Notes: generated from the letters alone by a model not told the origin. A DNA stretch of 64,000 nucleotides from an uncultured Planctomycetota bacterium (GCA_963845755.1 CAWJTV010000016.1:1-64000); one strand, 5' to 3'. Counted from the stretch's first letter, positions 4,480 to 63,072 are shown. A program made the numbers and translations.

Positions 4480-4485
4480 GGCTGG

Positions 4486-4698: not shown

Positions 4699-5861
4699 GT
4701 TGACTCATCCTCTCCAAGACCGCGGCTGTCAGCCTGCCTTGGACGGGGATCGAGCCCGGGCTGCCATCCTTGCCCATACTTCGGTCGGAGCCGCGATCTG
4801 GAAATGACAGAGTCAGGGATCAGGGACAGTTTTGCAACATTGTTGGGGGCGTGATCTCTCCTGCGCTGGCGAATCGGACGTTAGATGGGCTCCAGCAGTT
4901 GTTGGAGCAACGCTTTGGCACCCGAGGCCATCGGCGTGACGAAGCCAAGGTCCATCTGGTCCGCTATGCGGATGACTTCATCATCACCAGCACCTCACGA
5001 ATCCTCCTGCAACGCGAAGTCCAACCTCTCGTGGAACACTTCCTACGTCAGCGGGGTCTCGAACTCTCCCACGAGAAAACCAGGATCACGCATTTGGAGA
5101 ACGGCTTCGATTTCCTTGGCCAAACGGTCCGACGTTACCGCAGTGGCAAGGTCTTGACCAAGCCATCAAAACGAAGCGTCAAGACCTTCTTGACCAAGAT
5201 CCAGGAAACGATCGACAACTCGGGGAGCATGACGGCTGGAGACTTGATCCTGCGTTTGAACCAACAGATCAAAGGCTGGACCATGTACCATCGTTATGTC
5301 GCGAGTAAACGCACCTTCGCGACTGTGGACAACCGAATCTTCTGGAAGCTGAAACGATGGTGTCATCGACGCCATCCGCAGAAGAGTTGGAAGTGGATCA
5401 AGACGAAATACTTTCAACAAGTGGGTCACCGAGACTGGGTGTTCACGGGCACAATCCGTGACAGCACGGGCAAGGGCCGACCCATCCAGCTCATGAACGC
5501 CGTGGGAGCCAAAATCCTGCGGTGGGTGAAGATTCGGAGTGCCGCCAACCCCTACGATCCGGAGTGGGAACTCTACTTGGAAGAACGGCTGGCCTGGAAG
5601 CTCAGCCACACTCTGGCGGGTCGAGGACGGATCGAATATCTCTGGAAGGAACAGCAGGGACGTTGCGTGGTGTGCAGGCAAGCGCTTCACGCCGAAGAGC
5701 AACCCTGGCACATCCACCATCGGGTCTGGCGCAGTCACGGTGGCCAGGAGACGTGTGACAACCTGGAAGTGCTCCACGCCAACTGCCATCGACAAGTCCA
5801 CGCCCAGAAGCAATCGCTGAAGAACCCAGCCGCGTCCTGAGAGGGGCGTTAGTGAAGGCTT

Positions 5862-5936
5862 GAGCCGTATGAGGCGCAAGTCTCAAGTACGGTTCTTAGG
5901 GGGCGGGGAGACAGCAATGTCTCCCTGCTACCCGAC
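5862..5936 (+). ncRNA. Group II intron domains V and VI, 3' splice site
   Basis: GAGCCGTATGAG-GCGCAAG-TCTCAAGTACGGTTC (AGC triad) followed by the DVI hairpin, ending in AC. Confidence 0.9.
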
Positions 5937-21758: not shown

Positions 21759-23108
21759 TCAGATCGACAGCGGCTCGAACAACTCGTCGATCTTCCCCTG
21801 GCTGTCGGCGAAGGAGTCGAGGTGGACGCCCACCTTGTCGAGCAACGTCAGGTGGAGGTTCGCCAGCGGCGTCGGCTTCGCGTAGCGAATATGCCGGCCG
21901 CCCCTCATCTTGCCGGCCGCGCCCCCGGCGACGAGGATCGGCAGGTTCACATGGTCGTGCACGTTCGGGTTGCCCATCCCGCTGCCGTAGAGATACAGGC
22001 CGTGGTCCAGGAGCGAGCCGTTCCCCTCCGGCGTGGCCTTCAGCTTGGCGAGGAACTCGGCGAAGAGCGACACGTGGAACTGGTTGATCTTGGCCATCCG
22101 GGCGATCTTGGCGGCGTCGTTCCCATGGTGCGTGAGCGGGTGGTGCGGATCGGACACGCCGATCTCGGGGTAGGTCCGCCCGCTGGTCTCGCGGGCGAGC
22201 TGAAACGTGATGACGCGGGTGACGTCCCCCTGGAGCGCCAGCACCTGGAGGTCGAACATCAGACGGGCGTGATCGGCGTAGGCGGCCGGTACGCCGACGG
22301 GCCGGTCGAGGTCCGGCAGGGCGCCGTCTTTCGAGTCGGCCTCGGCCTTCTGGATGCGGCGCTCGACCTCGCGCACGGTCTCCAGGTACTGGCCGACCCG
22401 GGCGCGATCCGCCGGCCCGAGCTGGTTCTTCAGGCGGGCGATCTCGTCGGTGACCGAGTCGAGGAGGCTGGCCCGCTTCCTCAAGGCGGCGCGGCGATCG
22501 GTGGCGCTTCCACCCTCCCCGAACAGGCGCTCGAAGACGATTCGAGGGTGGGCCTCGGATGGCAAGGGAGTCGTCGGGGACGACCAGGAGAGGTTGTTCT
22601 GGTAGACGCAGGCGTAGCCGTTGTCGCACTGGCCGACGGTCGAGAGCAGGTCCATCGACAGCTCGAGCGACGGCAAGATCGTCTCCTGGCCGATGTGCTG
22701 GGCGGCGATCTGGTCGACGGTCGTGCCGAGATAATAATCCGTGCTCTCGGTCAACTTCGCCCGGGCCGCGCTCAGGAAGGCGCAGTTGGAGGTCGCGTGC
22801 GTGCCGGGGTAAGCGTTCCGCAGCTCGAGGTTCGTGATCGCCGTCACGTGCTGCTTGACCGGGGCCAGCGAGCTCAGGATCGGCGAGAGCTCGTCGAGGG
22901 TCTTATCGCCCGGAGGCGTCCACCGAGGGGTGTCGCACCCCATCGGCATGTAGATGAACCCCAGCCGCCGGAGGCGGGCCGGGGCGGCCGGGGACGCTGC
23001 CGCGGCGGTCATCGAGGGGATCATCGCGTCCAGGAGCGGAAGGGCCAGCGTCGTCCCCAGGCCCCGAAGGAATGTCCGACGCGGCAGGGCCTTCTTCGTG
23101 ACGATCAT
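21759..23108 (-). CDS. DUF1552 family protein
   Basis: LPRRTFLRG..LALPLLDAM, TVDQIAA, YQNNLSW, HHPLTHH, GNPNVHDH. Confidence 0.9.
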   Translation of the reverse strand: MIVTKKALPRRTFLRGLGTTLALPLLDAMIPSMTAAAASPAAPARLRRLGFIYMPMGCDTPRWTPPGDKTLDELSPILSSLAPVKQHVTAITNLELRNAYPGTHATSNCAFLSAARAKLTESTDYYLGTTVDQIAAQHIGQETILPSLELSMDLLSTVGQCDNGYACVYQNNLSWSSPTTPLPSEAHPRIVFERLFGEGGSATDRRAALRKRASLLDSVTDEIARLKNQLGPADRARVGQYLETVREVERRIQKAEADSKDGALPDLDRPVGVPAAYADHARLMFDLQVLALQGDVTRVITFQLARETSGRTYPEIGVSDPHHPLTHHGNDAAKIARMAKINQFHVSLFAEFLAKLKATPEGNGSLLDHGLYLYGSGMGNPNVHDHVNLPILVAGGAAGKMRGGRHIRYAKPTPLANLHLTLLDKVGVHLDSFADSQGKIDELFEPLSI

Positions 23109-25488
23109 TCGGAAGTCCTCATCTGGAACGGGATGCTGGTGGCGATCCCCACGATCAGCGACGAGAAACGATAATCCTTCGCGTGGGCGTGGTGTACGAT
23201 TTGACGGATGGCCGGGGCATCGAAGGACTCGACGCCCCTCCCCAGGGCGAACGTGAGGAGCTTTTCGGCCAGGGTGCGCGCGAACACCTCGGGGCGTTTC
23301 AGGAGGGCCCGTTCGAGGCCGGTCACGCCCACGAACCGGCTCTCATCGGGCAGGCCGCCCGTCGCGTCGATGGGCCGGCCCTCCTCGATCGTGCGCCATC
23401 GGCCGACGGCGTCGAAGTTCTCCAGCGAAAAGCCGACGGGGTCCATCAGCTTGTGGCAGCCCGCGCAGGCGACGTCCGCCCGATGCTGGGCCAGCCGCTC
23501 GCGGACCGAGAGCGACGACAACACCGTGTTGTCCTTGAGCGCCGGCACGGTCGCGGGGGGAGGCGGAGGCGGCGTGCCGAGGATGTTCTCCAGGACCCAC
23601 TTGCCGCGGATCACGGGCGACGTGCGGTTCGCATAGGAGGTCACCGTCAAGATGCTCCCCTGGCGGAGCAGGCCGCCCCGCACGCCGTCGCTGCCGAGCT
23701 CCACGCGGCGAAAGTGGTTGCCGTAGACGTGCGGGATGCCGTAGTGCTTGGCCAGGCGTTCGTTCAGATAAGTGTGGTCCGATTTTAACAGGTCGAGCAC
23801 ACTACGGTCCTCGCGCACGACGTTCTCGAACAGGAGCTCCGTCTCCTGGCGGAATGCCTGACGCAGGTTGTCGTCGAAGTCGGGGAAGAGGCGCAAGTCG
23901 GGGGTGATCGACTCCAGATTGCGCAGGTGCAGCCACTGGTCCGCGAAGTTGCTCACCAGGCTCCGGCGCGCGGGTCGGCCAGCATCCGCCGCACCTGCGC
24001 CTCGAGCACCTCGGGATTATCCAGTTCCGCGCGCTCTGCCAGGTCGAGCAGCTCGTCGTCCGGAATGCTGCTCCAGAGGAAGAACGACAGTCGGGAGGCG
24101 AGCTGGACATCGGGGACGCGGTAAGCCGAGTGCGGCGCCACGCCGGGCGGCTCCGACTCGATGCGAAAGAGGAACTGCGGGTTCACCAGCACGGCGCTCA
24201 GGGCCATCTCGATGCCCGCGTCGAAGTTTCCATCCGCGCGGGCGCTGCGGTACAGCTCCATCGGCCTCCGGAGGTCCGCAACGGTGACCGGCCTCCGGTA
24301 GGCCCTCCGCGTGAGCGTGGCGAGGATCCGTCGGGCACACGCCTCGTCCTCGTTCGCAGCCTTCGGCTCGCAGACGAAGATCCGGCGTCGGCTGGGCGTG
24401 TCCCCGTGCCCTTCCGAAGCATAGGGCCCGGTGATCGAGACCTGATACAGCGCCGGCGTGAGGCGGGGGTGCCGGTGCGCGTTGTAGTGGGCCTGGTATG
24501 GCTGGCGCTTCGTCTCCAGCAGCGAGGAGGCATTCTTCAGGAACGTCACGCCGAGCTGGTGCGGGCCGGCCGTCAGCCGGAGGCGGGCTTTCAGGTGCGC
24601 GTCGGCGGTCTGATGGTCTCTCTCCGATCGGGGCGGATTCACCGCGAACGACGCCTTTTGCTCGCGGTCCAGCAGCACCACCACCTCATGCGGCTCGCGG
24701 AGGCCCTCGACGTGCTCGTTACGGTCGCGCGACAGGCGAAGCTGGACCTCGTACTCGCCGTCTCGAGGGAAGGTATAAGGGATGATCGCCCCGCCGCGAG
24801 TGCCGACCGGCAGGCCCTCGACGTGCTCCTCCTGGGTGAGGTCCGGACGGATGCGGATCGTGTCGCCGCCGGGGGAACGACCGGGATTCCCCACCGCCAG
24901 CCGGCTGATCTTCTGCGCCGCGGTGATGTAGCGGTCCAGGAGCGTCGGCGAGAGGTCGCCCACCGTCACATTGTCGAACCCGTGGCTCGACTCATCCTTC
25001 GGCAGCAGTGCCGTTGCGTCGATATCGAGCGCCAGGAGGTCGCGGATGGCGTTCTGGTACTCGGTCCGGTTCAGCCGCCGGAACGTGTCGGTCCGGCCGG
25101 GATCGGGCCGCTCGGCGGCCGCGCGGTCGAGCGACCCCGCGAGCAAGGACACGAACGAGTCATACGTGCGCCGCGACGGTCGCACCTCCTCTCCCGGAGG
25201 CATCTGGCGTGCGACGAGCTTCCGCACGACTTTTTCCCAGTCGTCCGCGTTCCGGCTCACGTCTTCCGAGCTGATCGCGTCGAGGGCCAAACCCGCCGTC
25301 TGGTCATCGCGGTTATGGCACGCCGTGCAGTACAGATCCACGAACTGACCGATCGCTTCGCGCTCGTTCGGGCTCCCCGGAGTGGACGGAGGAGCGTTTT
25401 TGTTCTGGGCGGCGCTCGAACTCATCAAGCCGCCGACCAGGAACAGAATCGACACCCCGCAGAGGCCGCGAGTTCCCCATCGATTCAT
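23105..25488 (-). CDS. DUF1592/DUF1588-type planctomycete cytochrome c protein, frameshift near 23960
   Basis: CTACH and CAGCH heme motifs; RRLNRTEYQNAIRDLL, LASRLSFFLWSSIPD, TSPVIRGKW. Confidence 0.9.
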
Positions 25489-25752
25489 GAGGCCAAGCTC
25501 CGACATCGATGACCGATGAACGCAGTTAATGAGGATGGCGGTTACGTCGCGAACGAGCGATGCCGGCCTGGGAAGGCGTGACGCGCCGGCAGGAGGTTTG
25601 GCGATTTCCGATTCCCGCGCCCCGCGATTCTCTACCCGACCCTCAAGGATACACGCTGAACCGGGGAAAATCACGCCCTTGCCGGGATCGGAGAAGATGG
25701 TCTTGAGATCCAGGATCGTCCCGGGACGACAGCAGTGCGGTTCGAGAACGGG

Positions 25753-37638: not shown

Positions 37639-40600
37639 TCACTTCTTTGGCCGTTCGGCGTCAACCGGTTTGTCCCGCGGCAACTCAAATGACTTTCCGG
37701 ATTGGTGCAGGACCAGCGCCAAGACCTTGCTCCCGCTGTCTTTCTTAAATGAGACTGCGACCGCGTTGGTGAGTACAAACTGCCAGCGCCCCTCCTTGTC
37801 GGGCTCCCTCAGCTCGAACACCAGTTGACTGGGAATATCCAGGGCCAGTTTCCCGCAGCGGAATACCACCTGGAACGGGGTGTTTTTGAATGGCCCGAAG
37901 TTCGCGTAATATGTGCCGATCAGCGGTTTCATCGTAGCCGTTCACACCCCGAACAATTTGTACAGTTAGTTCGTATTACTGTATATGAGTCAGCAGCTTC
38001 CGATCCCTGAGCCACTCTGGAGCACCGTGCCCGAGGACGCGCAAGCCGCCCTCCTCGATGCCTGGAATGTGCTCCGGGATGAGATCGCCGAGTTGAAGAC
38101 CACCGTGCGCGATCTCCGGGCCCGGCTCGGACTCAACTCGACGAATTCCTCCAAGCCCCCCTCTTCCGACCCGATCGGCCTGAAACGAAAGCCGCCGACT
38201 CCGCCTTCGCGGCGCAAACGCGGCGGACAACCCGGCCATCGCAAGGCGTTCCGCGCCCTGGTCCCTCCCGAGGAGCTCCGATCGTCCACCGATCGTCGGC
38301 CCGGGGCCTGTCGTCGCTGCGGCCATGCGCTGCACGGCGAGGATCCCACACCCTTGATCCATCAGGTCGCCGACCTGCCCCGGATCGAGCCACTCGTGGA
38401 CGAATACCGGCTGCATCGGCTCGCTTGTCCGGACTGTGGGACGACCACGTGTGCGACCCTCCCCGAGGGGGTCTCCACCAGCCACTTCAGCCCGTACACT
38501 CAGGCCGTGCTGGCGACCCTGGCCGGCGCCTACCGCCTCAGCAAGCGGCAGATCCAGCAACTCGCCGGCGATCTGTTGGGGCTGTCGATCTCCACCGGGA
38601 TGATCTCCAAGCTGGAGCGACAATCGGCCGCCGTGCTGGAGGCCCCCTATAACGAGCTGGCCGTCGCCGTCCACACGGCGGAGGTGATCCATGCCGACGA
38701 GACCTCCTGGCGGGAGGAGCGGCGCAAGGCCTGGCTTTGGGCGGCGGTGACCGCGATGTTCACCGTCTTCACCATCGCCCGCAACCGCACCGCCAAGGTG
38801 GCCCGAGCGGTCCTGGGGACGCACGACGGCTCGATCGCGGTGACCGACCGTTGCAGTTCCTACGACTGGATCGCCGCGGCCGGCCGGCAGATCTGCTGGA
38901 GCCATCTCCGCCGCGATTTCCAGGCGATGATCGACCGCGGCGGGGCGGCCGAACCGATCGGCCGACGACTGTTGAGGCTGTCGGATCGGTTGTACCGCTG
39001 GTGGCATCGCCTCGAGGCCGAGCGGGTGGATCGGGGGCGATTCGCGCGACGATGACCCGGGTGAGGCGCGAGGTCAAAGCGGCGCTGGACGACGGTGCGC
39101 GGTGCGGATGTCCGCGGACGCGCGGGATGTGCGCCGAGATCCTGCGCGTGGAGGGGAGCTTGTGGACCTTCGCGCGGGTCGAGGGGGTGCCTCCCGACAA
39201 CAATGCGGCGGAGCGCGCCGAGCGGCACGCCGTGATCTGGCGGCGGATCAGCGGGGGGACCGACAGGCGCAGGGGAGCCGGTTCGTCGAGCGGATGTTGA
39301 CCGTGGTGGCCACGTGCCGGCAGCAGGGACGAGACGTGCTGGGCTACCTGACATCGTGCTTTGAAGCGGCTCGGAGCAACCAATCGATCCCCTCCCTCGT
39401 CCCGGTGACTCCACCAAAGATCGAGGCCGCCTAATTCCAGCTATCACGCCCCATGAACGGGTACGTTTCATCTCATCCGGCACTTTGTTAACGCCCTCGC
39501 GCTGGAGCAGCGCATCCTGGATTGTCGTCTCCAACCGGATCGTGCTGACCTGGCCCCGCGATTGTGTGAAGTAACAGACGATCAGATTCTCCGCGGGAAA
39601 TGCCCAAGCACCTGTACCATCCGAACCGCCGTGGCCGATGGCCCTCACTTCCGTCCTGGTAGGACTTTCGCCGGGTGCGTAGAGCATGGACATTTGGCCG
39701 TATTGCGGCTTCATCCCGAAAAACCCGCATGGGTACGGCTCAACGCTTCCGAGTGCTTTCATCGGCGACTTGGGAGTCAGGATGCGGGCGATCGCCTCGT
39801 TTGAGAGCAGTCGTTTGCCACCGGCCATGCCGCTGTCCATCCACATCGCGAGGAAGCGGGCATAATCGGCAGGGGTGGAGTAGAGCGTCTGCGAGCCCCA
39901 CGCGAACGGATACAAGGGTGCTCCGCCCGGCTTCCAGATCCGCGTCCACTTCCCCGGGCTGCCGAAGTAAAGACTCGCAACGCGCTTCTTGCGCGGGTCG
40001 TCGGCCTTCGAGAGATAGAACGAGTCGGCCATCCCCAGCGGCTGCAGGATCCGCTCCGCGACGAAGCGGTCGATCGTCGTGCCGCTGATCCGTTCGACAA
40101 CGGCCGCCGCGGCGTCACTGCCAGCGTCTGAGTACCAGAACTTTTCGCCCGGCTTGAATTGTGGCCCTTTTTCCCCGATGGCTTTCGCCTGGGTTTGCAG
40201 GTCGGAGTACTGATCGATTCTTACCGTCATGATCGTCAGAGGCAATCCGCTCCGGTGTTGCAGGAGTTGCTCGATCGTGATGGCCTTCGATTTGTCGTTG
40301 TCGAATCCGGGTAGGTATTTCGCCACGGGGTCGTCCAGGCGCAGTTTCCCCTCGTCGGCCAGCATCTGCACGGCGACTCCCGTCAGCGGTTTGGTCATCG
40401 AACGGATGTTGAAGATCGTGCCGCGCTCCATGGCTCGTTTGTCTTCGCGATCGCGCGCTCCGTAGACCTCGTGCAAGATCGTCTTGCGGTTCTTGATGAT
40501 CAGGAGCTCGCCTCCGACGATCGTGCCGTTCCTCACGTACTCTTCCACCTCGCCGGCCACTCGGCGCACGGCCGCGGCCGAAACGCCCTGGCTTTCGGGT

Positions 40601-41481: not shown

Positions 41482-41700
41482 GATTCGATCTTTAGCTAAT
41501 CGACGAAATTTGTCAAGGGCGGGGGTTCGACCTTGGTGGCAATGGCGCAGGGTGAATCGCTTTCAGCCTTCTTGGTCTTCGACTCGATCGCAAAATTGAA
41601 ACCGGCCTCCTCGGGCGGACTGTGGATGATCTGGCAGCGTGACGACCCTTGCGCCGGTTTTCTGTTCCATTGCTACTCACGCCCCAATCCGGAGACCACC

Positions 41701-42200
41701 ATGACCACCGAAACGATGAGCCTCAACGACTTGGTCCAGCTCGACGTGAGCATCAGCCGTCAGATCGACGAAAGGTTTCTGTCGCCCGCCGTTCAGAAAA
41801 CCCAGTCCAGACACTGCGGAGTTGTCCCGTGGAGCTTCCAGAAATCACATTGTTGCAGTTCTTGGTCTTGAGCCACATACGTAGGAATGGCGAGTTGTCA
41901 GGCCGAGATCTGCGTGGGCTTCTTGCAAGTGGGGGCGTGAAATCTACGGGCCCCCAGTTCTATCGCCTGATGTCCCGGCTCGAAGATGCCGGGCACATTC
42001 ACGGCTGGTATGCACCGAAGGAGATTGAACACCAGGTTGTGAATGAGAGGCGGTATCGCCTCACTGACGGCGGCCGAACAGCCTGGCAACAGACATCGGA
42101 TTTCTTTTCAGCTTGCTCCGGTGGAAGGCCGGTCCCGGCCGATCGTCCTTCGGGTCGGCGAGCCAAGGATATGAAAGGAGGAGCCAAATGCCTCGCGTAA
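41701..42200 (+). CDS. PadR-like winged-helix regulator (start/frame uncertain)
   Basis: LQFLVL...SGRDLR...FYRLMSRLEDAGHI...RRYRLTDGG. Confidence 0.65.
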
Positions 42201-42215
42201 CATAATTAAAGCGAC

Positions 42216-42246
42216 AAGAACCCCGGGGTCCGCCGGGTTCTTTTTT
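42216..42246 (+). terminator. Rho-independent terminator
   Basis: AAGAACCC...GGGTTCTT stem followed by a T-run, between convergent genes. Confidence 0.7.
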
Positions 42247-42376
42247 GCGCCCGCGCGAACACTCGGTTGAACTCGCATTGTGCACTACCCCTGCCCTGCC
42301 CTTCATCGTCTGCCGCTGGCTCTCATCCTCGAGGGCCCGCGGCCGTTCCCATTGGCACAACCGGTATGCTCGGCGC

Positions 42377-42661
42377 TCAAGCCGCTTCATCGTCGGCATC
42401 CGAGTTAACCGAAAACCCCTGCCCTTGCCGATCAGAACTGTCACCGGGATCAGATCCTCTTCCCTTGTCTACCAACACGACCCCACGTAAGCCAGCCCGG
42501 ACGAACTCGGCGGCTAAGGCCGAAGCGTCCACGCCTCTCAGCGCCGCAACCGCGCGGAGCTTGGCGTGCGTGACAACGTCCAGTGGCACGGATGTTCTGA
42601 CGGGCGGGCGGACGGGCACCGTTGCGGGTGCGCGACGTCGAGGGCTGTCCTGATCGCTCAT
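42377..42661 (-). CDS. Small ribbon-helix-helix-like DNA-binding protein
   Basis: RTSVPLDVVTHAKLRAVAALRGVDASALAAEFV pattern; GGAGG RBS. Confidence 0.55.
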   Translation of the reverse strand: MSDQDSPRRRAPATVPVRPPVRTSVPLDVVTHAKLRAVAALRGVDASALAAEFVRAGLRGVVLVDKGRGSDPGDSSDRQGQGFSVNSDADDEAA

Positions 42662-42902
42662 GGGCGGCCTCCAGCAAGATCACGAGTGAGCCCGCGAGGT
42701 CGCTCCCCGCGGGCTTACTCTCTTTCGGCCGTGCGCACGTGCGGCCTTGAGCGTCGGCTTATTCCCGCATGCCGTCGGCCTCCAGCGCCGGCAGCCTATA
42801 CGCGCTAGGCGACGTCGTGCACATGAACTATTGACCAAAGGCCCGGAATCTGCCTCAATGGATGCACAAGCAGCTGACTAAAAACGACCCGGGGCCCCGC
42901 CG

Positions 42903-43133
42903 ATGAGGTCGCGGCATCCTAACAAGCACATCGAGGAAGCCGTCCAATACGCGGAGTCACGGGGCTGGCGCTTCACGAAGTCCGAAGGACACGCTTGGGG
43001 TATCCTCCGATGCCCGGAACGCAGTCGAGAAGGCTGTCAAATTTCCGTGTGGTCAACACCCAAGGTTCCGGAGAATCACGCTGAACAGATCCGAAGGCGG
43101 GTCAACTGGTGTGGTCATGGGCAGGGGACATGA
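42903..43133 (+). CDS. HicA-like putative toxin
   Basis: HPNKHIEEAVQYAESRGW...GHAWG..C...SVWSTP. Confidence 0.65.
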   Translation: MRSRHPNKHIEEAVQYAESRGWRFTKSEGHAWGILRCPERSREGCQISVWSTPKVPENHAEQIRRRVNWCGHGQGT

Positions 43134-43134
43134 G

Positions 43135-43446
43135 ATGAAGGAAACGCACGAATTTACCCTGGTCGTTAACGGAATCTCCGAACTGACTCCCGAGGTCCTG
43201 GACGCACTCTTTGAAGCCGGTTGCGATGATGCTACGGTTTGCCAGCAGAACGACCGCGTTGAGATGGATTTTGCCCGCAGCGCCCCCACGAGGGATGAGG
43301 CTGTCGAAAGCGCGGCTCGCGACGTTGCTAAAGCAAACATCGGCGCGACGGCGACCCTGGTGATTAACGAGCGGCCCGACAAAGGGGCTGTGTCGAGAAT
43401 CCTCCAGAACCATAAAAACCGCCGGATCCGAAAGACGGGCGCCTGA
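43135..43446 (+). CDS. HicB-like putative antitoxin partner
   Basis: HEFTL...DALFEAGCDDA...MDFARSA...AVESA; starts 1 nt after the toxin stop. Confidence 0.6.
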   Translation: MKETHEFTLVVNGISELTPEVLDALFEAGCDDATVCQQNDRVEMDFARSAPTRDEAVESAARDVAKANIGATATLVINERPDKGAVSRILQNHKNRRIRKTGA

Positions 43447-43507
43447 CCCGTCCGCGTCGTGGAAGTGAAAATTGACTTCCACGCCTGGTTGAACCACGAT
43501 CGGTCGG

Positions 43508-43720
43508 TCAGTTCCGCCTGGCCGCCATCCGTTCCCTATGGCGCTTCTTGAGCTTCACGACCAGGTCGTTGGGCGTCGGGCTGGAGTTCATGAACCAGCA
43601 CTCGCGCTCCGCCACCGCTTTCCGGGCCGGACAGCAGCGCGCCGGCCCGGGGCATCGGGTACCGATAGGCGAGCCGTGCCGAGGGCAGGGGAACCGGCTG
43701 ATGATCTCTGGGGAGGTCAT
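43508..43720 (-). CDS. Small Cys-rich hypothetical protein
   Basis: CPRHGSPIGTRC...CC; 70 aa. Confidence 0.4.
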   Translation of the reverse strand: MTSPEIISRFPCPRHGSPIGTRCPGPARCCPARKAVAERECWFMNSSPTPNDLVVKLKKRHRERMAARRN

Positions 43721-43861
43721 GGGAGAATCATACCATAGGTCGCTTATACGGCTCTCTGAGCCCCTGCCGGCCGTTGACGCCCCATCCGTCAGGCCGAGTC
43801 CAGATCGCCCCTCTCAAGCCACGCCTGGCAGCGCAGCGCGGGCTTCTCTCTTTGCCTAGAA

Positions 43862-44195
43862 CGCCGATTTCCGCGGAGGAGAAATCGATTGACATTTGGT
43901 CCACGCCAGGACTGGTTTTCCCGCGATATCTTGGACTTGGTGTCAGTCGGTTTTGTCAGTCAGGGTCTGCGTGGGCCAATCGCCAAGTCACATCGAAGTG
44001 TGGGCCATTGGCGCGGATTTCCGCGGTTTGGCGGACCTTCCCCTTGAGCCACCTGCGATTTGACATTCCCGGTTTCCTGGTCTCTTGCCTCAAAACCATC
44101 TGACATTCCAGGGGACAAGTTGTCGCGAATTCCGGAGAATCTCGCCACCTCCCGCCAGAAGTTGTCAGTCGGTTTCCCCCCCGCGGAAATCGGCG
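43862..44195. mobile_element. MITE-like element
   Basis: 33-bp imperfect terminal inverted repeats (4 mismatches) flanked by direct TAGAA repeats at 43857-43861 and 44196-44200. Confidence 0.6.
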
Positions 44196-44714
44196 TAGAA
44201 GAGAAATTTGAGGAAAAGGGCCGTCGTTATACTAAAGTTCTTCTGGATGCCCCAAAGGTGCGCGGCGGTAGCATCGGCTGATAAACCCGGCGGATGTCGC
44301 TTTTTGGAAACACATCGCCGGAACGCGGGCAAACGTTTCATAATTCCTCTGAGAAGACGCGAGAGCCGGCCCCGGCCCGCATGTCGCGCTCTTCGTGCGC
44401 GCGTTGCGCATGAAAAGCCCGGGGTGACAGCCCCGGGCAATTGGCAAATCCTGGCTTGAGGACCAAAGGTTCGCTATGGGTACACTAGCTTATTCTGAGC
44501 AGAACAAGAACAACGGCAAGAGGCGACGCCTGCCATGGCATGTGATTGCAGCGGTTCTCGCGGCCTTGACGGCGTTCGCCGGCCTGGCCGAGAAACTTCT
44601 CGATCTCTACAGCAATTACCAATGACCAGCCAGGGGCGCCGGCCGCCTCGCCTCTGGGGCGGTCGGCTTCCCGCGGCCGATTCCCCGTCCCGACGGTCGC
44701 CAGGACCAGGACGG

Positions 44715-44752
44715 TGTGTGTGAGTAGCAATGGAACAGAAAACCGGCATAAG
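44715..44752 (+). repeat. Third Tn3-type IR with a degenerate outer end
   Basis: 28 bp (44720-44747) are the exact reverse complement of 41653-41680; ends TAAG. Confidence 0.7.
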
Positions 44753-44828
44753 TCGTCGAGCGACTTCTACTTTGACGACCCAAAGCGGACCTGACGCCCG
44801 GGCGCAATCCGTCGGGCGAGTCGCACGA

Positions 44829-45200
44829 TTAAGCGGGAGCGTACGTCAACCTAATCACGTCCTCGCCAACGAGATCGCTGGTCACGAAGCGGAGCGGCGG
44901 CCGAGGGCCGGAGAAGAATGGCTTGCCGCGACCCAGTACGATGGGATGGAGGTAATGTCGATACTCATCAATAAGACCAAGGTTGGTCAGGCTTCCTGCC
45001 GAGCCTGGTCCGGCAACTTCAAGCTCCCCAACTGGCTGTGCCTTCAGCCCACGTATCACCGCCTCGATGTCATCCTCGACCAGTGTGGCGTTGGGTCCGA
45101 CCGACTTCAACGTGCGCGACACAACCCACTTCGGCTGGCTGCGCCACGCCGCCGCGAACTCGTGTCCCGCCGCGCCCCAACGCCTCTCGTGAAGGGAGGG
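44829..45200 (-). pseudogene. Dihydrofolate reductase/RibD C-terminal family, 5'-truncated
   Basis: PKWVVSRTL...GLIDEYRHYLHPIVLGRGKPFF; no N-terminal half visible. Confidence 0.75.
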
Positions 45201-49079: not shown

Positions 49080-49535
49080 TCACCGGCGAGATCCCGCTTC
49101 GATCGGACCGCGCCGAGAGTCTCGCGGAAGAAAGGCCGCCGGTGACAAGTCGAAGAACATGGCGAGCTTGAGGATCTGCCCCTTGGTGAGCGAGCGGGCA
49201 CCGGTCAGCACCGCCGAAATCGTAGACTGAGCGATACCGACGGCCTTCGCCAGCTCCATCTGACTGAACCCGTTGGACCGCATCAGCTCGCGGAGTACGT
49301 CGGCCTCCGAGACATCCGCCATCGCGACATGCTCGTCCTCGTAGGCTGCGACCAGGTCGGTCAAGACGTCCAGGTACCTCTGGATCCCTTCATCCCGGTC
49401 CTGCCGCAACAACCCGTTGAGCACCGCGAGCGCCTCATCCAGGTGGGCCTCGTCCCGGATATGGATGAGCGGGAATCGCTTGACCAGCTTCCAGTAGGTG
49501 TCCGGCACTCTCGGGGTAGCGGCCTTGGCTGCCAT
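49080..49535 (-). CDS. higA: HigA-type antitoxin (HTH)
   Basis: LDVLTDLVAAYEDEH...SQMELAKAVGIAQSTISAVLTGARSLT. Confidence 0.85.
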   Translation of the reverse strand: MAAKAATPRVPDTYWKLVKRFPLIHIRDEAHLDEALAVLNGLLRQDRDEGIQRYLDVLTDLVAAYEDEHVAMADVSEADVLRELMRSNGFSQMELAKAVGIAQSTISAVLTGARSLTKGQILKLAMFFDLSPAAFLPRDSRRGPIEAGSRR

Positions 49536-49541
49536 CGCTCA

Positions 49542-49900
49542 TCATCCTCTCTTCTGCCGGCGGGGCATGGCCGCCCCCGGTGCGGGGGACTTCTTCGCCA
49601 CGGGCGGCCTTCTGGGCGGGGGCTCGTGACACCCGCAGTCATCGATCCAGCGTCCCTTGTCGTATTCCCGGTGATCCATCACCTTGAGGATGTACAGTTT
49701 GCCGGTGGTATAGAACACGCGCCCGATCAGCCGGAAGCGGTTGTTGCCCACGTCGAAAACGACGCAGTTGCCGACCTGATCGGCCGATCCGAAGGTCTGC
49801 CTGAGCGCCCCGAAGTGGTCCCAGTCGGCGCTTTCGGCCATCTTGAACCAGGCTGGCGGTACTTGACCGCTTCAGGCATGCCAGCCCCCTCCCAGAGACC
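49542..49900 (-). CDS. higB: HigB-type toxin, N-terminus frameshifted or degenerate
   Basis: F.SAD.V..CVVFDVGNNRFRLI...HREYDK. Confidence 0.8.
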
Positions 49901-50538: not shown

Positions 50539-51119
50539 CGTCCACCCCGCGACGTTCCAGGAGAGAGACTACACGCCACACCCTGAAGATTATCCCCAAC
50601 GCGGCGGAGACCGCAACCCAACGAGGATTCCGGATTTCCGGATGCCCCAGGCCCCTCTTCAAACCACGGATCCCGGCCGCGCAGTCTCCCTGTTTTCTTT
50701 TTTTTCGGATTTTCGCATCTACTGCCGCGGTCGAAAGTTCGGGAGGCCAGCAGCCTGAAATCCGCACTAGGTGCATTAACGAAATTTCCAAGTTGCGGCA
50801 TACTGAATATAGAGGATCTCGAAACCCGTACCTGGTCGCGAAAGACCTGAGAATTCCGCCTTCCCAATGCCGCCCGCGACTCGATTGCTCCGACCTTTTC
50901 GGGACGTGCACCGAACTCGCTTCGGGTTAAAGAGATCGGCGACGGCGACTCGCCGAAATGGTGATCACCAGTGCCTATTTGTGCCACGATCCCGGGCTGG
51001 CGCGGCCCCACCCAACCCCGGCGCCCGTGGGAATGAAGCTAACCCGCGGAGGAGCTTCCGGTGGGCGGCTGATGGCGCGGGGCGTCGGCTGAATTGCTGG
51101 TCGGTGAGGGGCACGGCCG

Positions 51120-57323: not shown

Positions 57324-60300
57324 TCACCCGTGAGCGAGGAATTCCTCCAGGACAGCCGGTAGGTTGCGGATCGAGGATTCCTCCGACGCCAGTCTCGAAG
57401 CCAGTCGCGAGGCGAGCCCCGGCAGGTCGGGGAGCAGGCGGACGGCCTGGACGAGGTTGGGGTGTGTCGATTCGAGAGTATCCAGGTAGTGCTCCACTAG
57501 CTCCGTGCTCAGCAGTTCCGGCGCCCTGTCCCAGAGCTCCTTGCCGATCCGGAATAGGGCGTGATCGACCGCCCCAGGCGGGGTACCGGAGGAACGGAGT
57601 CTTTGGGTGAGTTCACGAACCTTTTTCGAGTCGATCTCCTGGAGCGAAGCCGGATCCACGTCGGCAGGCAGACGGTCAGGAGGCAGCCTGATCCGATCGG
57701 CGCGCTGGTTGATCGCGAGCTCGATCGCATCAACCGAGAGGCGTTCGTCGGACTGGATCGCGATCTTGGGCGGGATCACCCCGCGACATTGGAAGAGGAT
57801 CGATTGGAGGCGAACGAACCCTTGTTCCAGCGCATCGCGATCGAGGGAGGACGATCGGCTGAGGAAGAGCGTCAGCGAGGCCGTCTCGAGGCTCATGGTC
57901 GGCACGTCGGCATCTCCTTCAGTTCTGCCGTGGGTGAGCGAGTTGCTCGACGATCGCGTCTTCGGCCATCCCGCGCCGCCGCATCGGGTCGAACGCTTCG
58001 ACGATCGCATTCAAGTTCCCGATCGAGATGCGCCGGGCCAGCAAGCCCTTGAGGACCCGCGTCAGCGCGACGACCTTCTCGGGCTTCTTGGGGATGTCGG
58101 CTCGCGAGCCGACGGACGACTCCTTCAACAGGGCTACGGTCGCCTCGTAATGAATCAGGTCGGCCATGCTGGACTCGAGCACGGCTTGCAGCCGATCCAG
58201 GAGGAACTCGGTCGGGGCCAGCAGGGGCAGCCCCTTATCACGAGCGCACGCGGCCTGGCTTTCGTCGAGCCAGAGTCCGTTTGGCGCTGGAACCTCGCCG
58301 GTGAGCTTCCGTCGGTTCGCCGGTGAGACCCAACGTCTTCCGATCCTCGGCCGGGACGAACGTCTTCTCAGGTGGGATGCGGCCCTCTTCTTTGAGTTTT
58401 CCCATCACCATTAAAAAATACGTTCCGGGTCGGGACGAGCCCTCCGCGATATCGGTGAACGACACGCCCGGGATTGTCAGGCCGAATCGGTCCCGGAAGT
58501 GCCCGCGCATCGCGGCAATCTTCTCGAGAATCGCGTCGCGGAGTGCATCCCTCGACTCGGTCAGGATGGGGCTGAGGAGTGCGGCCTCGAGCACGGGCTG
58601 GATCGGCGTGACGACCGGGATCAACTCGAGTGATGGTTCGCCGTAATGCAGGAGAAATCGCTTCCGATGCTCGTACTTGGCAAGTTTGCCGGCATACTCG
58701 GCATTCTCCGGCATGAGCCGGCTCGCCTGCTGTAGCGCCTCTGATAATCTCGTCGTATCGGCCGGATCGGTCAGATGCCGACATCTGCTCGAGCGCCCCG
58801 GCGAGGTTCGAGTGGATTACGGCGTTCTTCGGGGCCTTTTCGAGGGCCTTCCGGTACGCCTTGGCGGCTTCCGCATATTCCCTGAAATAATAGTGCAAGT
58901 TACCGATGAGATTGTCGTAATCGGCCTCGAAGGTCTCGCGCCGGCTGTCGAGCGCGAGATCGTAGAGGCCGAGTGCGGCCTCGCGATCCCCTCGCTTGGT
59001 AGTAGACGTCGGCCAGCGCCATCATGGCCTGGACCGGTTCGCCGCCCGTATGGTCAGCGACGAGGGCGCGTTCCACCTCGGTCTCGGCCTCGGAGTGCCT
59101 TTTGAGCATCCGCAGGAAGTCCGCCATCTTCGACCGGAAGCGGCCCTCGAGTCGGGGCTCGAGTCGCAGGGATTCCTTGCAGAATTCCAGGCCTTCCTCG
59201 TACCGGCCCTCGCGTTCGCAGAGCACGGCCATGAACCAGTATCCGTCGTAGGCCGCGGGGGCGATCTCAATGGCCTTCGCGAATGCGGACCGGGCCTCTG
59301 CCAGGGCCTCCGTGGTCCGGTCCGGCCGATCGGCCATGCCGAGGCTGCGCGTTTCCCAACTCGAGGTATCCCCGGAGCCGCGTAGGGTCCAGGGCGATCG
59401 CCTGGGCATAGCAGGCGAGGGCCTCGCGGTCGAGGTTGTTTTGCAGGTCGATCGACGCTTCCGTCAACAGGAGGTTGTACTCGGCCGATGGGTCCACGGC
59501 ACGGGCCTTGGCTTTGAGCGCCGGGATCCGCTCCCGGCGGTCGGCGAACAGCTTAGGGTGGCCGTAGAGCCGGATGAGCCGCAGATAGGCCGCGGACGAG
59601 CCGCAGGCGGCCGAGATGGCATCTTGATAGTGGGTCTCGGCCCCGTCGAGGTTCTCCACCGTTTCATCACACTCGGCCAGGGCCAGGTAACCGTCTTGCC
59701 GGCGTGGATCGAACGCAACGGCGCGACGGGCGAAGTCGGCGGCTTTCTCCAGTTCCCCCTTGTACAACCAGAGGCGAGTCCAGCCGACGAAGACCGCGAG
59801 CGAGTTCGTATCTCCGGTCAACTCGTCGGCCTTTTTCAGCCAACCCTCGGCACCGTCAACGTCGCCGAAAACCGAGAGATGGATCTGAGCGAGAACGCCC
59901 ATGAGCGAGGCGTGCTGGAGGTCATCGAGGCCCGGCTCTTTCGAGAGCATGACGAGGCCGTCACGGCACTCCGCCCATCGCTCGTGCGCCATGAGCACAG
60001 AGTACCGTTTCATGGCTTCGAGCCGTCCGGCGAATTCTTCCGGGGCCGGCATCGGAGCCTTCGCCAATGCGGTGCAGAGCGCATCGCAGTCCCACATCGC
60101 GCGGACGTAGACCCAGACCCAGAGGGCCCACCCGGCTCCGGCGTCGCGGCAAAACGCCTCGGCCACCCGCTCGATCAGGCGATCGCAGATGAGCTTGGTG
60201 CACTCGTCGCGCAACTGCCGGAGGACCGGCAGGAGGCGGTCGACCTCGGCACGGCCCACCTGGTTGTCGAGCAGGATCCAAAGGGAAAACGGGTCGTCCT

Positions 60301-60499
60301 CGGCCAGCAGGGCCTCGCGCAGGCGTTCCAGGACGTCGGTCGCGGTGCGCATGTCGGCGTCGCGGCCCGCCGCGGCGCCGTAGGCGCGGGCGAGGATCGC
60401 AACGACTTCGTCCCGCTGGAACAGCCGCACGGCTCCGAACAGCGATGTGCCCGGCGGAGAGGGGACCGTGGTCGCCGTTTGTTGCAAGGCCTGGCCCAT
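57324..60499 (-). CDS. TPR-repeat protein with two C-terminal FlhA/FHIPEP-like cytoplasmic domains (about 5 apparent frameshifts)
   Basis: TPR motifs (ARRAVAFDP, YAQAIALDP, AKAIEIAP, YRKALEKAP). RFGLTIPGVSF, LTRVLKGLLARRISIGNLNAIVE, and a second GVIPPKI...LASEESSIRNLPAVLE resemble the FlhA C-terminal domain. Confidence 0.7.
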
Positions 60500-60511
60500 G
60501 GAATGGCTTCC

Positions 60512-61884
60512 TCACGATTTCGAGTCGAAGCGGTCCATGGTTGCAGTCGCGGGGGCCCCGGGCGACGGCGACGCCGCCGACAGATTGGACGCCGCCCCGG
60601 CGGCCATCCTCCCCCCAGCCGGAATACTGACCGGAGTGGTTCCTGGCCGGATCGACGGCGCTGGCCCGGGTGTTCCGGTCGAAGGCGACGACCCCGTCGT
60701 CTCCTTCTCCGTCGGAAGGATGATCGAGTCCCGGCAATGCATGTAGACCACCGGGGTCCCGAAACGGCGGAAGTCCAAGGAGCCGCGCCTTGCCCCAACT
60801 CGTAACGCGCGACCTTCACAGCTTCGTCGACTTCCATGCCCGCGCCGATCTGCTCGTAGAACGTCTTCACGAATTTCCTCGCTTCCTGATTCTGGATCTT
60901 GTATTGCATCGCGATCACAACCGGCACGTCCGCCTCGATGGCTATCGTCCGCGCCATATCCCGGAAGCTGTTGAGCGAGGTGATGGTCGTCGTCGAGGTG
61001 CTCGACGCGCTGTTGCAGGCATGCAGGAAGACCATGCGAAGATCCGGACGGTCGAACAGACCCATGATACCGGCGGTAGAGATCCAATCCGCCGTCGGAC
61101 GCTTCTCTCCCGGCGTCTCGTCATTCAGGTCGATATCCGTCGCTTCCTTGAGAAAGGCGAGCTCGCCCTTCAGGCCGTGTCCGATGAAGTGGAAGACGTG
61201 CGGTCGCCACTCCATCTCCTTGCGGACCTTCGAGAAGGTCGGGTCCTTGACTTGCCGGACTTGGACACGCTGGGCTGTGCCATCCTCGAGCTCCTTGATG
61301 GCCTTGATCGCATCCTGGGCCGAGGTCTCGATGTCCTCGAGATCGCGGGGCTGGCAGCAGACAACGAGGATCTTGAGTGCCTCACGGTCGGGGTCGATCA
61401 ACTGGTCCTTGTCGGACAGGCGGCGCGTCAGGATCAGGTCCTTCGAGTGGCCGGTGAGGAAGTAGCCGCCCAGGCCGGTACTGTTCGCGAGCGGCATGAA
61501 GAGGAATTCCCAGGGGAGGTGCGTCAGTTTGCTGTCCCGATCGGCGAAGAACAGGTTGAGGCGGAAGCGGAGGTCGGAGACTCCCCCGCTCTTCCTGTGC
61601 AACTGGTCTTCCCGGGAAACCTCCGCGGCGAAACCCTTGTAAGCCTCCTCGAACGCTTCGCGCACGTCCTTCGAACCGAAGAGGATGCCGTAGAGGTGCA
61701 GCCCGAGCAGCTTCAGCAGATCCAAGCCGCAGTTGTTGTTCTGACCGACCAGGGTGTTGAGGTGTTCGATGGTCAAAGCCGCGACGTCTGAATAATACAG
61801 CTCCCCCGACACCCCTTTGCCATAGGGCGGCTTGAATTCCACGATCTTCTCGCGGATCGTGATCGTACAATCCACGTAGCGCAT
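60512..61884 (-). CDS. CHAT (caspase-like) domain protein, frameshift near 60785
   Basis: LPWEFL, LKILVVCCQP, HVFHFIGHG (His), VFLHAC (Cys), VIAMQY, FVKTFYE, FGTPVVY. Confidence 0.88.
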
Positions 61885-61905
61885 CCCAGGTCCTCCGGCG
61901 GGACA

Positions 61906-63072
61906 TTACATGTCGAGGATCGAGACGGCGCTCGGGCGCACGACGTCGAGGGGGCCGGGTTTGACGGCCGCCTCGGGGCCCATCGTGGCCAGGCCCACCG
62001 CCTTGTCATGGATGGCCTTCATCCGTGTCCTGTAGAACTCCTTCAGCTCGTCGCACTGGGGCGCGGTGAGGTCGGGGCTCAACTCGATGGTCTCGTAGAG
62101 GCTCAGCATGTTGGCCTTGGCGCTGGCCCACTTCTCGAGGTTGGCGCTGTTGGCCTCGCCCTTGATCCGCTCCCAGAGCGGGTAGAACGGCAAGGTGGTC
62201 AGGTCGTCGCGGCGGTCGTCCGGCGGACGGACGATGCTGAACAGGACGAAGTCGGCCGCGGTGTACTTGGTGGAACTTTCCAGGCTCGGCCCCTGGTAAA
62301 GCTGATTGTTGCGCACCCAGAGCGTCTTGGGATCGACGTTCGGCGCGTCGATGAGGGCATAGAACCCCGGAGTGAACGGGTCGCCGGACGCGGAGTCGAA
62401 CTCGCGGCGCAGTCCGACCAGCGGCGTGGTGACGTCCAGCCCCAGCAGGCCCTCGAACCCATCGAGGACGACGTCCGCCAGGTGGAGATACGATCCGAGC
62501 GACGACGCGACGCCCAGTGGTCCCGAGGCTTTCTCGATCACGCCCAGCAGCCGCCGCGCGTAGTCCTTGACCTGCACCGAACAGAGGACGACCGACACGA
62601 TCAGCCGGCCCCCGCGGAACGGGTGCAGGCCCGATACGCGGGTATCCTGCAAGATCGTGCCGTGGGGCACGGTCAGGTTCTGTTGCTTGATCAGCGCGGG
62701 GCCGACCACGAAGGGAACCGCTTGCTCCGCCTTGTCGTAGATGAACTCGGAGACGACGAAGACGGTCGGGTCGATGGCGTGGAACCACTGGCGGGCCTGG
62801 GTCAGATACATCTCGTTGACGCGGACCTGGAAATAATCCTCATCGGCCGCGAAGACCGCTTGCAACGGCTTGCCGATCGTGATGTCGTCGCCGGAAGGCT
62901 TGCCCGTACCGGGCTTCGGTACCGGTGACGGGGGCGTCGGCACCGTCGGCCGGGGCGTCGGTTGTGGGCCCTGGACCTGATTGATGGGGATCTCCACCGC
63001 GGTGGGCATCACCCGCGGCGCATTGATGATCCGTGTCTTGATGGTGTTCCAGACGTCGGCGAATCGCGACAT
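61906..63072 (-). CDS. Hypothetical protein, first gene of the CHAT operon
   Basis: Intact 388-aa ORF with GAGGA RBS and strong GC3 bias; Pro-rich N-terminal linker. Confidence 0.8.
   Translation of the reverse strand: MSRFADVWNTIKTRIINAPRVMPTAVEIPINQVQGPQPTPRPTVPTPPSPVPKPGTGKPSGDDITIGKPLQAVFAADEDYFQVRVNEMYLTQARQWFHAIDPTVFVVSEFIYDKAEQAVPFVVGPALIKQQNLTVPHGTILQDTRVSGLHPFRGGRLIVSVVLCSVQVKDYARRLLGVIEKASGPLGVASSLGSYLHLADVVLDGFEGLLGLDVTTPLVGLRREFDSASGDPFTPGFYALIDAPNVDPKTLWVRNNQLYQGPSLESSTKYTAADFVLFSIVRPPDDRRDDLTTLPFYPLWERIKGEANSANLEKWASAKANMLSLYETIELSPDLTAPQCDELKEFYRTRMKAIHDKAVGLATMGPEAAVKPGPLDVVRPSAVSILDM

Follow-up and report, generated by a model that had tools for sequence, protein, structure and literature searches.

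A conserved gene cluster of a planctomycete joins a caspase-like CHAT protease to an unnamed partner gene and to soluble FlhA/SctV-like domains, and may be a conflict-type module

The cytoplasmic domains of FlhA and SctV, proteins of the flagellar and type III export gates, form nonameric rings, and TPR-regulated CHAT proteases act in bacterial immune and death pathways. In bacterial gasdermin systems, the gene of a caspase-like protease adjoins that of a pro-effector that acts after cleavage. Here we describe a gene cluster (positions 57,324 to 63,072) from a 64,000-nucleotide (nt) stretch of DNA of an uncultured Planctomycetota bacterium (GCA_963845755.1, CAWJTV010000016.1:1-64000; hereafter the window), in which an unnamed gene (gene A), a gene coding for a caspase-like CHAT protease and a region coding for a TPR protein with two FlhA/SctV-like domains follow each other on the minus strand. 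A preliminary description, made from the sequence alone, had read these as three genes of an inflammasome-like signalling or defence system. We see about an even chance that they form a conserved conflict-type (abortive-infection or cell-death) module, in which a sensor or scaffold free of any nucleoside triphosphatase (NTPase) domain controls a protease and pro-effector pair. Comparable logic is found in published systems: Kaur et al. (2020, PMC7159879) describe the caspases of VMAP/MoxR systems as always having a neighbouring partner gene, called an alpha/beta-hydrolase, and PMC12799240 describes protease and pro-enzyme pairs that were re-acquired by unrelated immune systems.

Profile scores, searches of PDB sequences and fold comparison all bear out the homology of the two FlhA-like copies to the C-terminal domain of FlhA/SctV (SD1-SD3). 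The window harbors Pfam matches to TPR and three FHIPEP-like pieces of 17 to 26 bits when taken singly, and the piece at 57946-58281 reaches 32.9 bits, above the cut-off. The first copy (FlhAc1) matches FHIPEP at model positions 348-429 and 465-546, and the second (FlhAc2) scores 25.7 bits against the same model and retrieves MxiA (4a5p, 1.5e-4) and InvA (9.7e-4) with phmmer. In a full HMMER search with FlhAc2 as query, only 44 proteins among 1.84 billion representatives reached E <=1e-3, and FHIPEP was present in 15 of the 16 matches scanned, for example at 2.4e-34 in P0013. Six proteins of 1,079 to 1,401 amino acids (aa) join TPR repeats to FHIPEP, with the best stretch covering approximately positions 326-548 of 657 in five of them, and a double zinc ribbon stands at the N-terminus of some of the six. 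P0007, which consists of two copies in tandem, matches FlhA (3mix, 1.6e-10), and also InvA (2x49) and YscV (7qij), in phmmer. Moreover, when its AlphaFold2 model (predicted local distance difference test, pLDDT, 88) was compared by Foldseek, every match listed was an FlhA/SctV C-terminal domain, with E around 1e-11 over about 210 to 226 columns.

Along with this likeness in sequence and fold to FlhA/SctV proteins (FlhA-C; InvA, MxiA, YscV and CdsV), there are clear differences: the copies described here have no membrane domain and no SD4, are two and unlike each other, are fused to TPR repeats, have no secretion genes near them and are fixed beside a caspase-type protease. No 19-residue stretch at a Kyte-Doolittle value of 1.6 is present in the window pieces, P0013 or P0044, and no flagellar or type III secretion system (T3SS) families were identified among the 45 open reading frames (ORFs) of the window or in the flanks of five related metagenome loci (L009-L013). 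The FlhA-C-like motifs, the lack of an obvious transmembrane region and the lack of flagellar or T3SS genes in the window, all three noticed in the preliminary description, are therefore borne out. In addition, no NTPase family was detected on the window pieces, on six related proteins (P0013, P0020, P0024, P0031, P0033 and P0044) or on the proteins of L009 and L012. Three further searches added nothing: a plasmid search with P0007 gave no match, a homologue search with a 410-aa N-terminal piece found none, and a contig scan with P0013 alone gave, among the matches listed, two zinc-ribbon/TPR matches that were judged irrelevant.

The cluster itself is a real, conserved and horizontally moving module with a patchy, cross-phylum distribution. 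A metagenome scan with a four-sequence alignment gave 11 loci, six of which were dropped as weak, TPR-only matches (E 7e-13 to 6e-4). The order gene A, CHAT, TPR protein with two FlhAc copies is the same in all five strong loci (L009-L013), where a gene A of 303 to 382 aa as called is followed by CHAT and then by a protein combining a zinc ribbon, TPR repeats and two FlhAc copies; L011 has a frame break of its own in the CHAT gene and L010 one in the TPR gene. The neighbourhood anticipated by the preliminary description thus recurs in other genomes, and none of these loci is a T3SS or flagellar one. For 13 gene A clusters, the length of the longest contig is identical to that of a CHAT cluster, which suggests that the two genes are co-located. 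Named homologues belong to Acidobacteriota, a cyanobacterium, Planctomycetota, Streptomyces and an archaeal metagenome-assembled genome. The module is scarce in the lineage to which the window belongs: gene A was found in none of the 400 other genomes sampled from the phylum, no close relative of FlhAc2 was found in 40 relatives, and the locus is absent from the genome of a sister genus (G001). Both long loci have conflict- or defence-type neighbours, namely an nSTAND1-TPR gene and a DUF4062 gene in L009, and an integrase and an AriA/GajA/Old-like ATPase in L011. The 1,421-aa nSTAND1-TPR protein and the DUF4062 gene (L009, 18753-23960, minus strand), lying about 5 kb from the module, make up a second conflict-type system on that contig.

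The three co-oriented genes and the gaps of 21 nt (gene A/CHAT) and 12 nt (CHAT/TPR) given in the preliminary description agree with the coordinates of their ends, the stop of gene A lying at 61906 and the ATG of CHAT at 61884, and the TGA of CHAT at 60512 and the ATG of the TPR gene at 60499 (Table 1). The start of gene A at 63072, giving 388 aa, agrees with the starts of its homologues; this protein, reported earlier as having no recognizable identity, is indeed an intact ORF without any match in Pfam, PADLOC or NCBIfam. The CHAT/TPR junction consists of TGA, GAGGAAG and ATG, as in a normal coupled junction. A single CHAT-TPR fusion split by error was considered and rejected because this junction is normal and because the two genes are separate in the relatives too.

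A second junction most likely changes the gene count. At the frame change at 57921/57905, a TGA (57921-57919) is followed by AGGAGA, 7 nt and a GTG, so that AGGAG lies 8 nt upstream of this GTG, and we read it as most likely a real gene boundary, which would make FlhAc2 a separate gene of 193 aa in the window. This reading is adopted because a stop, AGGAG and GTG precede FlhAc2 and because its closest relatives (P0002 and P0003) start where it does, as do many stand-alone proteins of about 215 aa. The 193-aa product is identical to a protein already present in the database (P0001). Judging from these signals, the cluster most likely comprises four genes, gene A being followed by CHAT (about 457 aa), TPR-FlhAc1 (about 859 aa) and FlhAc2 (193 aa). 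Of the TPR protein of roughly 1,050 aa announced earlier, the TPR repeats and the FlhA-like domains therefore stand, whereas the single polypeptide most likely does not (859 and 193 aa here); the fused form exists in intact homologues, which carry both FlhA-like copies in 1,079 to 1,401 aa.

The CHAT domain (PF12770) reaches 64.8 bits (cut-off 24; Pfam E 1.2e-17), a score within the 53 to 79 bits of its relatives. In an alignment with 65 relatives, the His of its HFIGHG motif falls on H246, which is invariant, and the Cys of FLHACNSA on C298, which at least 90% of them keep; the first His of HFIGHG is invariant as well. By family and by this intact His/Cys dyad, which the preliminary description had already recognized, the protein is a predicted protease. 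The nearest named NCBIfam family is HetF, a weak match (27.5 bits, the cut-off being 1200). Most relatives carry a double zinc ribbon at the C-terminus of the CHAT protein, and its cysteines are kept in at least 90% of CHAT relatives; in the window, the C-terminal tail is instead rich in Pro, Ser, Thr and Gly. In L009, the double zinc ribbon at the C-terminus of CHAT and the ribbon at the N-terminus of the TPR protein are 40% identical (5e-14). In most relatives, the protease is probably tethered to the TPR protein via these matching double zinc ribbons, similarly to the homotypic adaptor or effector-associated-domain logic of conflict systems presented in PMC7159879.

The gene A family comprises 92 homologous clusters, none of which has a Pfam domain, and its named members are only annotated as "hypothetical". 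An AlphaFold2 model of the protein (pLDDT 86, predicted template modelling score 0.83) predicts an N-terminal helix bearing Trp, a beta-sandwich (77-286) and a C-terminal helical bundle, and the predicted sandwich carries an inserted, moderately hydrophobic helical hairpin. This hairpin is the most hydrophobic part of the protein in 63 of 70 relatives. A search of PDB sequences with the gene A profile found no relative (best E 0.61), and the Atlas returned only unnamed clusters with low recognition. Gasdermin was not among the matches listed for gene A by Foldseek and VIA, nor in PADLOC, lists that cannot exclude the fold. EACC1, a small domain with a single transmembrane segment described in PMC7159879, was considered as an identity for gene A and rejected as a misfit.

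Gene A also occurs with another protease. On plasmid ABRG53a of Pseudanabaena (L025), a homologue with 45% identity (7e-96) precedes a Peptidase_C14 caspase by 16 nt, and this caspase resembles the CHAT clade only remotely. The same locus comprises a VMAP-C protein, a MoxR ATPase, a giant caspase-bearing protein, an EAD10-STAND protein and a WD40 protein; it is flanked by transposases, and the plasmid is mobilizable. Gene A is found beside two caspase-superfamily proteases of different kinds, each under a control module unrelated to the other, and the pair of gene A and a caspase-type protease therefore looks like a portable cassette. Gene A holds the position of the caspase partner described in PMC7159879. 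A distant relative of gene A (23% identity) is present on plasmid pPAES01 of Prosthecochloris aestuarii (L026, 8956-11503), where it is followed by proteins of 310 and 114 aa without Pfam or PADLOC match, which may represent a third kind of partner.

In the module that we propose, one half would be this cassette, where gene A would be the partner of the protease and most likely a pro-effector cut by CHAT. The other half would be a control part made of the TPR protein and the two membrane-free FlhA/SctV-C copies, devoid of NTPase and split here between two genes. The TPR array would sense a trigger, and the FlhA-like domains would act as in the export gate, by assembling or by docking partners, thereby bringing CHAT molecules together or releasing them and so activating them; the product of gene A, once cleaved, would then act, perhaps at the membrane. 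What we infer in this scheme is that a trigger is sensed, that the parts assemble, that gene A is cleaved, that cells die and that the system acts in defence. A bolder version, which we hold to be doubtful, is that the export-gate ring domain is reused as an NTPase-free caspase-activating platform, an "inflammasome", with the zinc ribbons as death-fold-like adaptors and the C2-like gene A product as a cleaved, membrane-directed executioner in a cassette shared with MoxR/VMAP systems. As for the inflammasome-like defence idea of the preliminary description, the FlhA homology, the conserved neighbourhood and the absence of T3SS or flagellar genes agree with it, as do the recurrence of gene A beside another caspase-type protease in a conflict system and the neighbours in the two long loci; the last FlhA-like domain, placed there in a single protein of about 1,050 aa, is probably a gene of its own here. 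Oligomerisation of the FlhA-like domains, activation of the protease and defence are proposed roles.

Several known systems share parts of this scheme. The Craspase (type III-E TPR-CHAT/Csx29 with Csx30) resembles it in combining CHAT, TPR and a dedicated neighbouring substrate with downstream effects. It differs in that TPR and CHAT are separate proteins here, the control part is FlhA-like and the system is not RNA-guided; no Cas7-11 or other Cas family was found among the 45 window ORFs, and no CRISPR repeat family in an Rfam scan. The VMAP/MoxR-vWA systems (PMC7159879) are similar in having a caspase with a fixed neighbouring partner gene, with the gene A family standing directly upstream of the caspase (16 nt in L025) on the Pseudanabaena plasmid. 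They differ in that the caspase partner is called an alpha/beta-hydrolase in that source, whereas gene A is modelled as a beta-sandwich with helices; MoxR, vWA and VMAP-C are all absent from the window and from L009-L013. The protease and pro-nuclease pairs of PMC12799240 are alike as two-gene cassettes of a protease and a pro-enzyme placed under different sensors, but there the protease is trypsin-like and the effector a nuclease, whereas gene A has no nuclease features. Gasdermin and protease systems are alike in logic only, gene A lying upstream of its protease. Finally, the apoptosome and the inflammasome, built on STAND NTPases, share the proposed principle, in which a repeat sensor works with an oligomerising platform to activate a caspase-type protease; they, as well as Avs-type STAND sensors, differ from the TPR-FlhAc proteins, which have no NTPase domain.

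A number of observations weigh against a conflict module of this kind, or at least against parts of the mechanism. Since the window version is devoid of both ribbons, at the C-terminus of CHAT and at the N-terminus of the TPR protein, the proposed tether cannot apply here. SD4 is absent, as the matches end near positions 536-548 of 657 and the alignment with 3mix covers 16-248 of 382; the best Pfam stretches of the family members lie within 326-548 of 657, apart from P0033 and P0036, which run to 655-656, and among the long matches only P0033 is an exception, with one copy reaching position 655. Ring formation by the FlhA-like copies is a proposal made by analogy. The gene A model gave nothing meaningful in a Foldseek comparison with the PDB, and its fold resembles only C2 domains with a middling score (Z around 7), a lead and not an assignment. 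Gene A is not a classical membrane protein either, a Kyte-Doolittle value of 1.6 being reached in eight of 70 gene A relatives and one of 1.9 in none of the 70. No PADLOC family fits either gene A or the TPR-FlhAc protein, and L010 and L013 have housekeeping genes as neighbours, for example EF-P and a phosphoribosyltransferase. Lastly, with five frame breaks, the CHAT and TPR genes of the window may be inactive in this organism.

These frame breaks are the basis of the alternative that survives best, in which the module is the same but is here a decaying remnant, genuinely mutated at all five breaks and intact only in gene A and FlhAc2; we regard this as less probable than an assembly artefact, yet as a possibility to be taken seriously. 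Five corrections are needed, one in CHAT (near 60776) and four in the TPR gene (near 59335, 58990, 58760 and 58300). They were mapped by the third-position GC and by tblastn with intact relatives, which together give one collinear reading: the TPR region is covered collinearly by P0013, P0020, P0024, P0031 and P0044 in frames -2, -3, -1 and -2, and FlhAc1 by P0006, P0007 and P0024. The preliminary description had called for the frameshifts to be corrected; this applies to the five breaks, but not to the sixth frame change, which is most likely the gene boundary upstream of FlhAc2. Decay would account for five breaks falling within about 4.3 kb of CHAT and TPR-FlhAc1 in a window that otherwise looks less broken, where a PSD4 domain is clearly split near 24000 and an ankyrin gene probably is, and it would fit a sister-genus genome without the locus. 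On the other hand, no piece of the broken genes contains an in-frame stop, every piece has a third-position GC of 0.77-0.95 in its own frame, and a one-base shift suffices to bridge each of the five breaks. The break near 58300 had also been considered as a 22-nt duplication, hence a real mutation, an argument that was dropped because a one-base shift between two repeats coding for LTGE fits equally well.

The assembly (14.27 Mb in 49 contigs, 87.9% complete) shows the same defects elsewhere. In contig C34, rpoB lies in two frames and rpoC has two frame changes (79366-83015 and 567489-571586), and a count by eye on 125 matches shows approximately 35 DUF1501 copies, out of about 85, broken into neighbouring pieces that lie in other frames. 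At the rate of rpoB and rpoC, three breaks per 7.8 kb, about 2.2 would be expected in 5.75 kb where five are seen (Poisson P around 0.07). As rpoB and rpoC suffer from frame breaks too, the one break in CHAT and the four in the TPR gene are more likely due to errors of assembly, and we keep decay as a real alternative because the rest of the window is less broken than this locus. Short contigs from soil metagenomes match at 99% or more but reach none of the five break sites, and therefore cannot settle the frameshifts. More generally, with so many indel errors in this assembly, pseudogene calls in this genome require read-level support. The PSD4 split mentioned above belongs to a planctomycete protein with the domains PSD3-PSD5-PSD4-PSCyt3-PSD2 (23108-25752, minus strand), which is interrupted in the middle of PSD4 and lies in two overlapping frames, probably through an assembly frameshift.

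A second alternative concerns the FlhA-like domains alone, which may be docking receptors rather than ring scaffolds, holding the product of gene A or the CHAT tail until a trigger arrives, much as FlhA-C receives chaperone-substrate complexes. It would agree with the retention of SD1-SD3, the part of FlhA/SctV in which the chaperone-docking region lies, and the solved complexes 6ch2, 6ch3 and 7qij occur among the fold matches of the P0007 model. The presence of two unlike copies per system instead of one, and the loss of SD4, point in the same direction, but the GYXLI motif of FlhA is not kept in the aligned stretch, and we consider such a role unlikely.

A third alternative places the module outside immunity, as a unit of regulated proteolysis or of developmental or signalling function, HetF-like, in which the TPR-FlhAc protein would target CHAT to a cellular substrate. 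It draws on the weak match of CHAT to HetF, on the two loci with housekeeping neighbours and on the lack of a match to any known defence family. However, the patchy spread across phyla, with gene A missing from all 400 genomes of the phylum, the occurrence of gene A and a caspase on a mobilizable plasmid, inside a VMAP/MoxR conflict system with transposases on either side, and the conflict- or defence-type neighbours in L009 and L011 argue against it, and this distribution and these neighbours make a non-immune proteolytic function, like a flagellar one, less likely; we rate it as distinctly improbable. An accessory role in flagellar or type III export, such as that of a soluble FlhA decoy or regulator, would fit a true FlhA elsewhere in the genome (769.8 bits, in an 842-aa frame of contig C5) and a TPR part weakly like the T3SS chaperones LcrH/SycD (57.9 bits against a cut-off of 104.8), but it is hardly credible given that no flagellar or T3SS genes occur in the window or the five loci, that searches of 40 relatives and of 400 genomes of the phylum did not reveal the module, that it is fixed to a caspase-type protease, and that relatives of gene A and CHAT occur in Streptomyces and in cyanobacteria, which to our knowledge lack flagella.

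No description of soluble FlhA-, FHIPEP- or SctV-like domains with CHAT, caspase, TIR or defence was found in the literature, subscription journals and recent papers lying outside the search, and FlhA, FHIPEP and SctV are not mentioned once in the main text of two conflict-system surveys, one of them PMC7159879. FlhA/SctV-C is not known from published work outside secretion machines. A soluble FlhA-C in a protease-centred conflict system would thus be a component not described in that role, and the gene A family is unnamed. If the conflict module proposed here is real, it would provide a new building block for prokaryotic cell-death or immune systems and a platform for caspase control that needs no NTPase. 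It would also give a function to the gene A family, which numbers at least 92 clusters and is seen with CHAT as well as C14 caspases, and bear on the evolution and reuse of secretion-gate parts.

Table 1. Genes and domains of the cluster, in window coordinates
Feature	Coordinates	Strand	Basis and state
Gene A, 388 aa, unnamed family	61906..63072	-	Intact ORF
CHAT (caspase-like) protease, ~457 aa	60512..61884	-	Pfam; one frame break near 60776
TPR-FlhAc1 gene, N-terminal helical region and TPR array	58712..60499	-	TPR Pfam; collinear tblastn
FlhAc1, first FlhA/SctV-C-like copy, SD1-SD3	57919..58711	-	FHIPEP; tblastn; break near 58300
FlhAc2, second FlhA/SctV-C-like copy, 193 aa, GTG start	57324..57905	-	FHIPEP; phmmer

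The region of the window is rich in mobile elements. Two IS66-family transposases, the second of which is truncated, and a serine recombinase/resolvase are present (1278-2741, 3688-4485 and 37970-39052), and a full-model Rfam match to a group II intron (62.8 bits) lies at 5860-5936 on the plus strand, just downstream of a 356-aa ORF (4770-5840). A segment of about 3.5 kb (41600-45200) contains no ORF of 200 aa or more, has a weak coding signal and matches no Rfam family. Two adjacent stretches of about 110 nt (50690-51010) have approximately 60 matches at 67 to 79% identity scattered over the sister-genus genome, and may either be a dispersed repeat or code for a conserved N-terminal module shared by a large family of paralogues. 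Finally, a HigB-like toxin and a helix-turn-helix antitoxin (HigA) are encoded at 49083-49871 on the minus strand, the toxin also matching the PADLOC family PD-Lambda-2_A.

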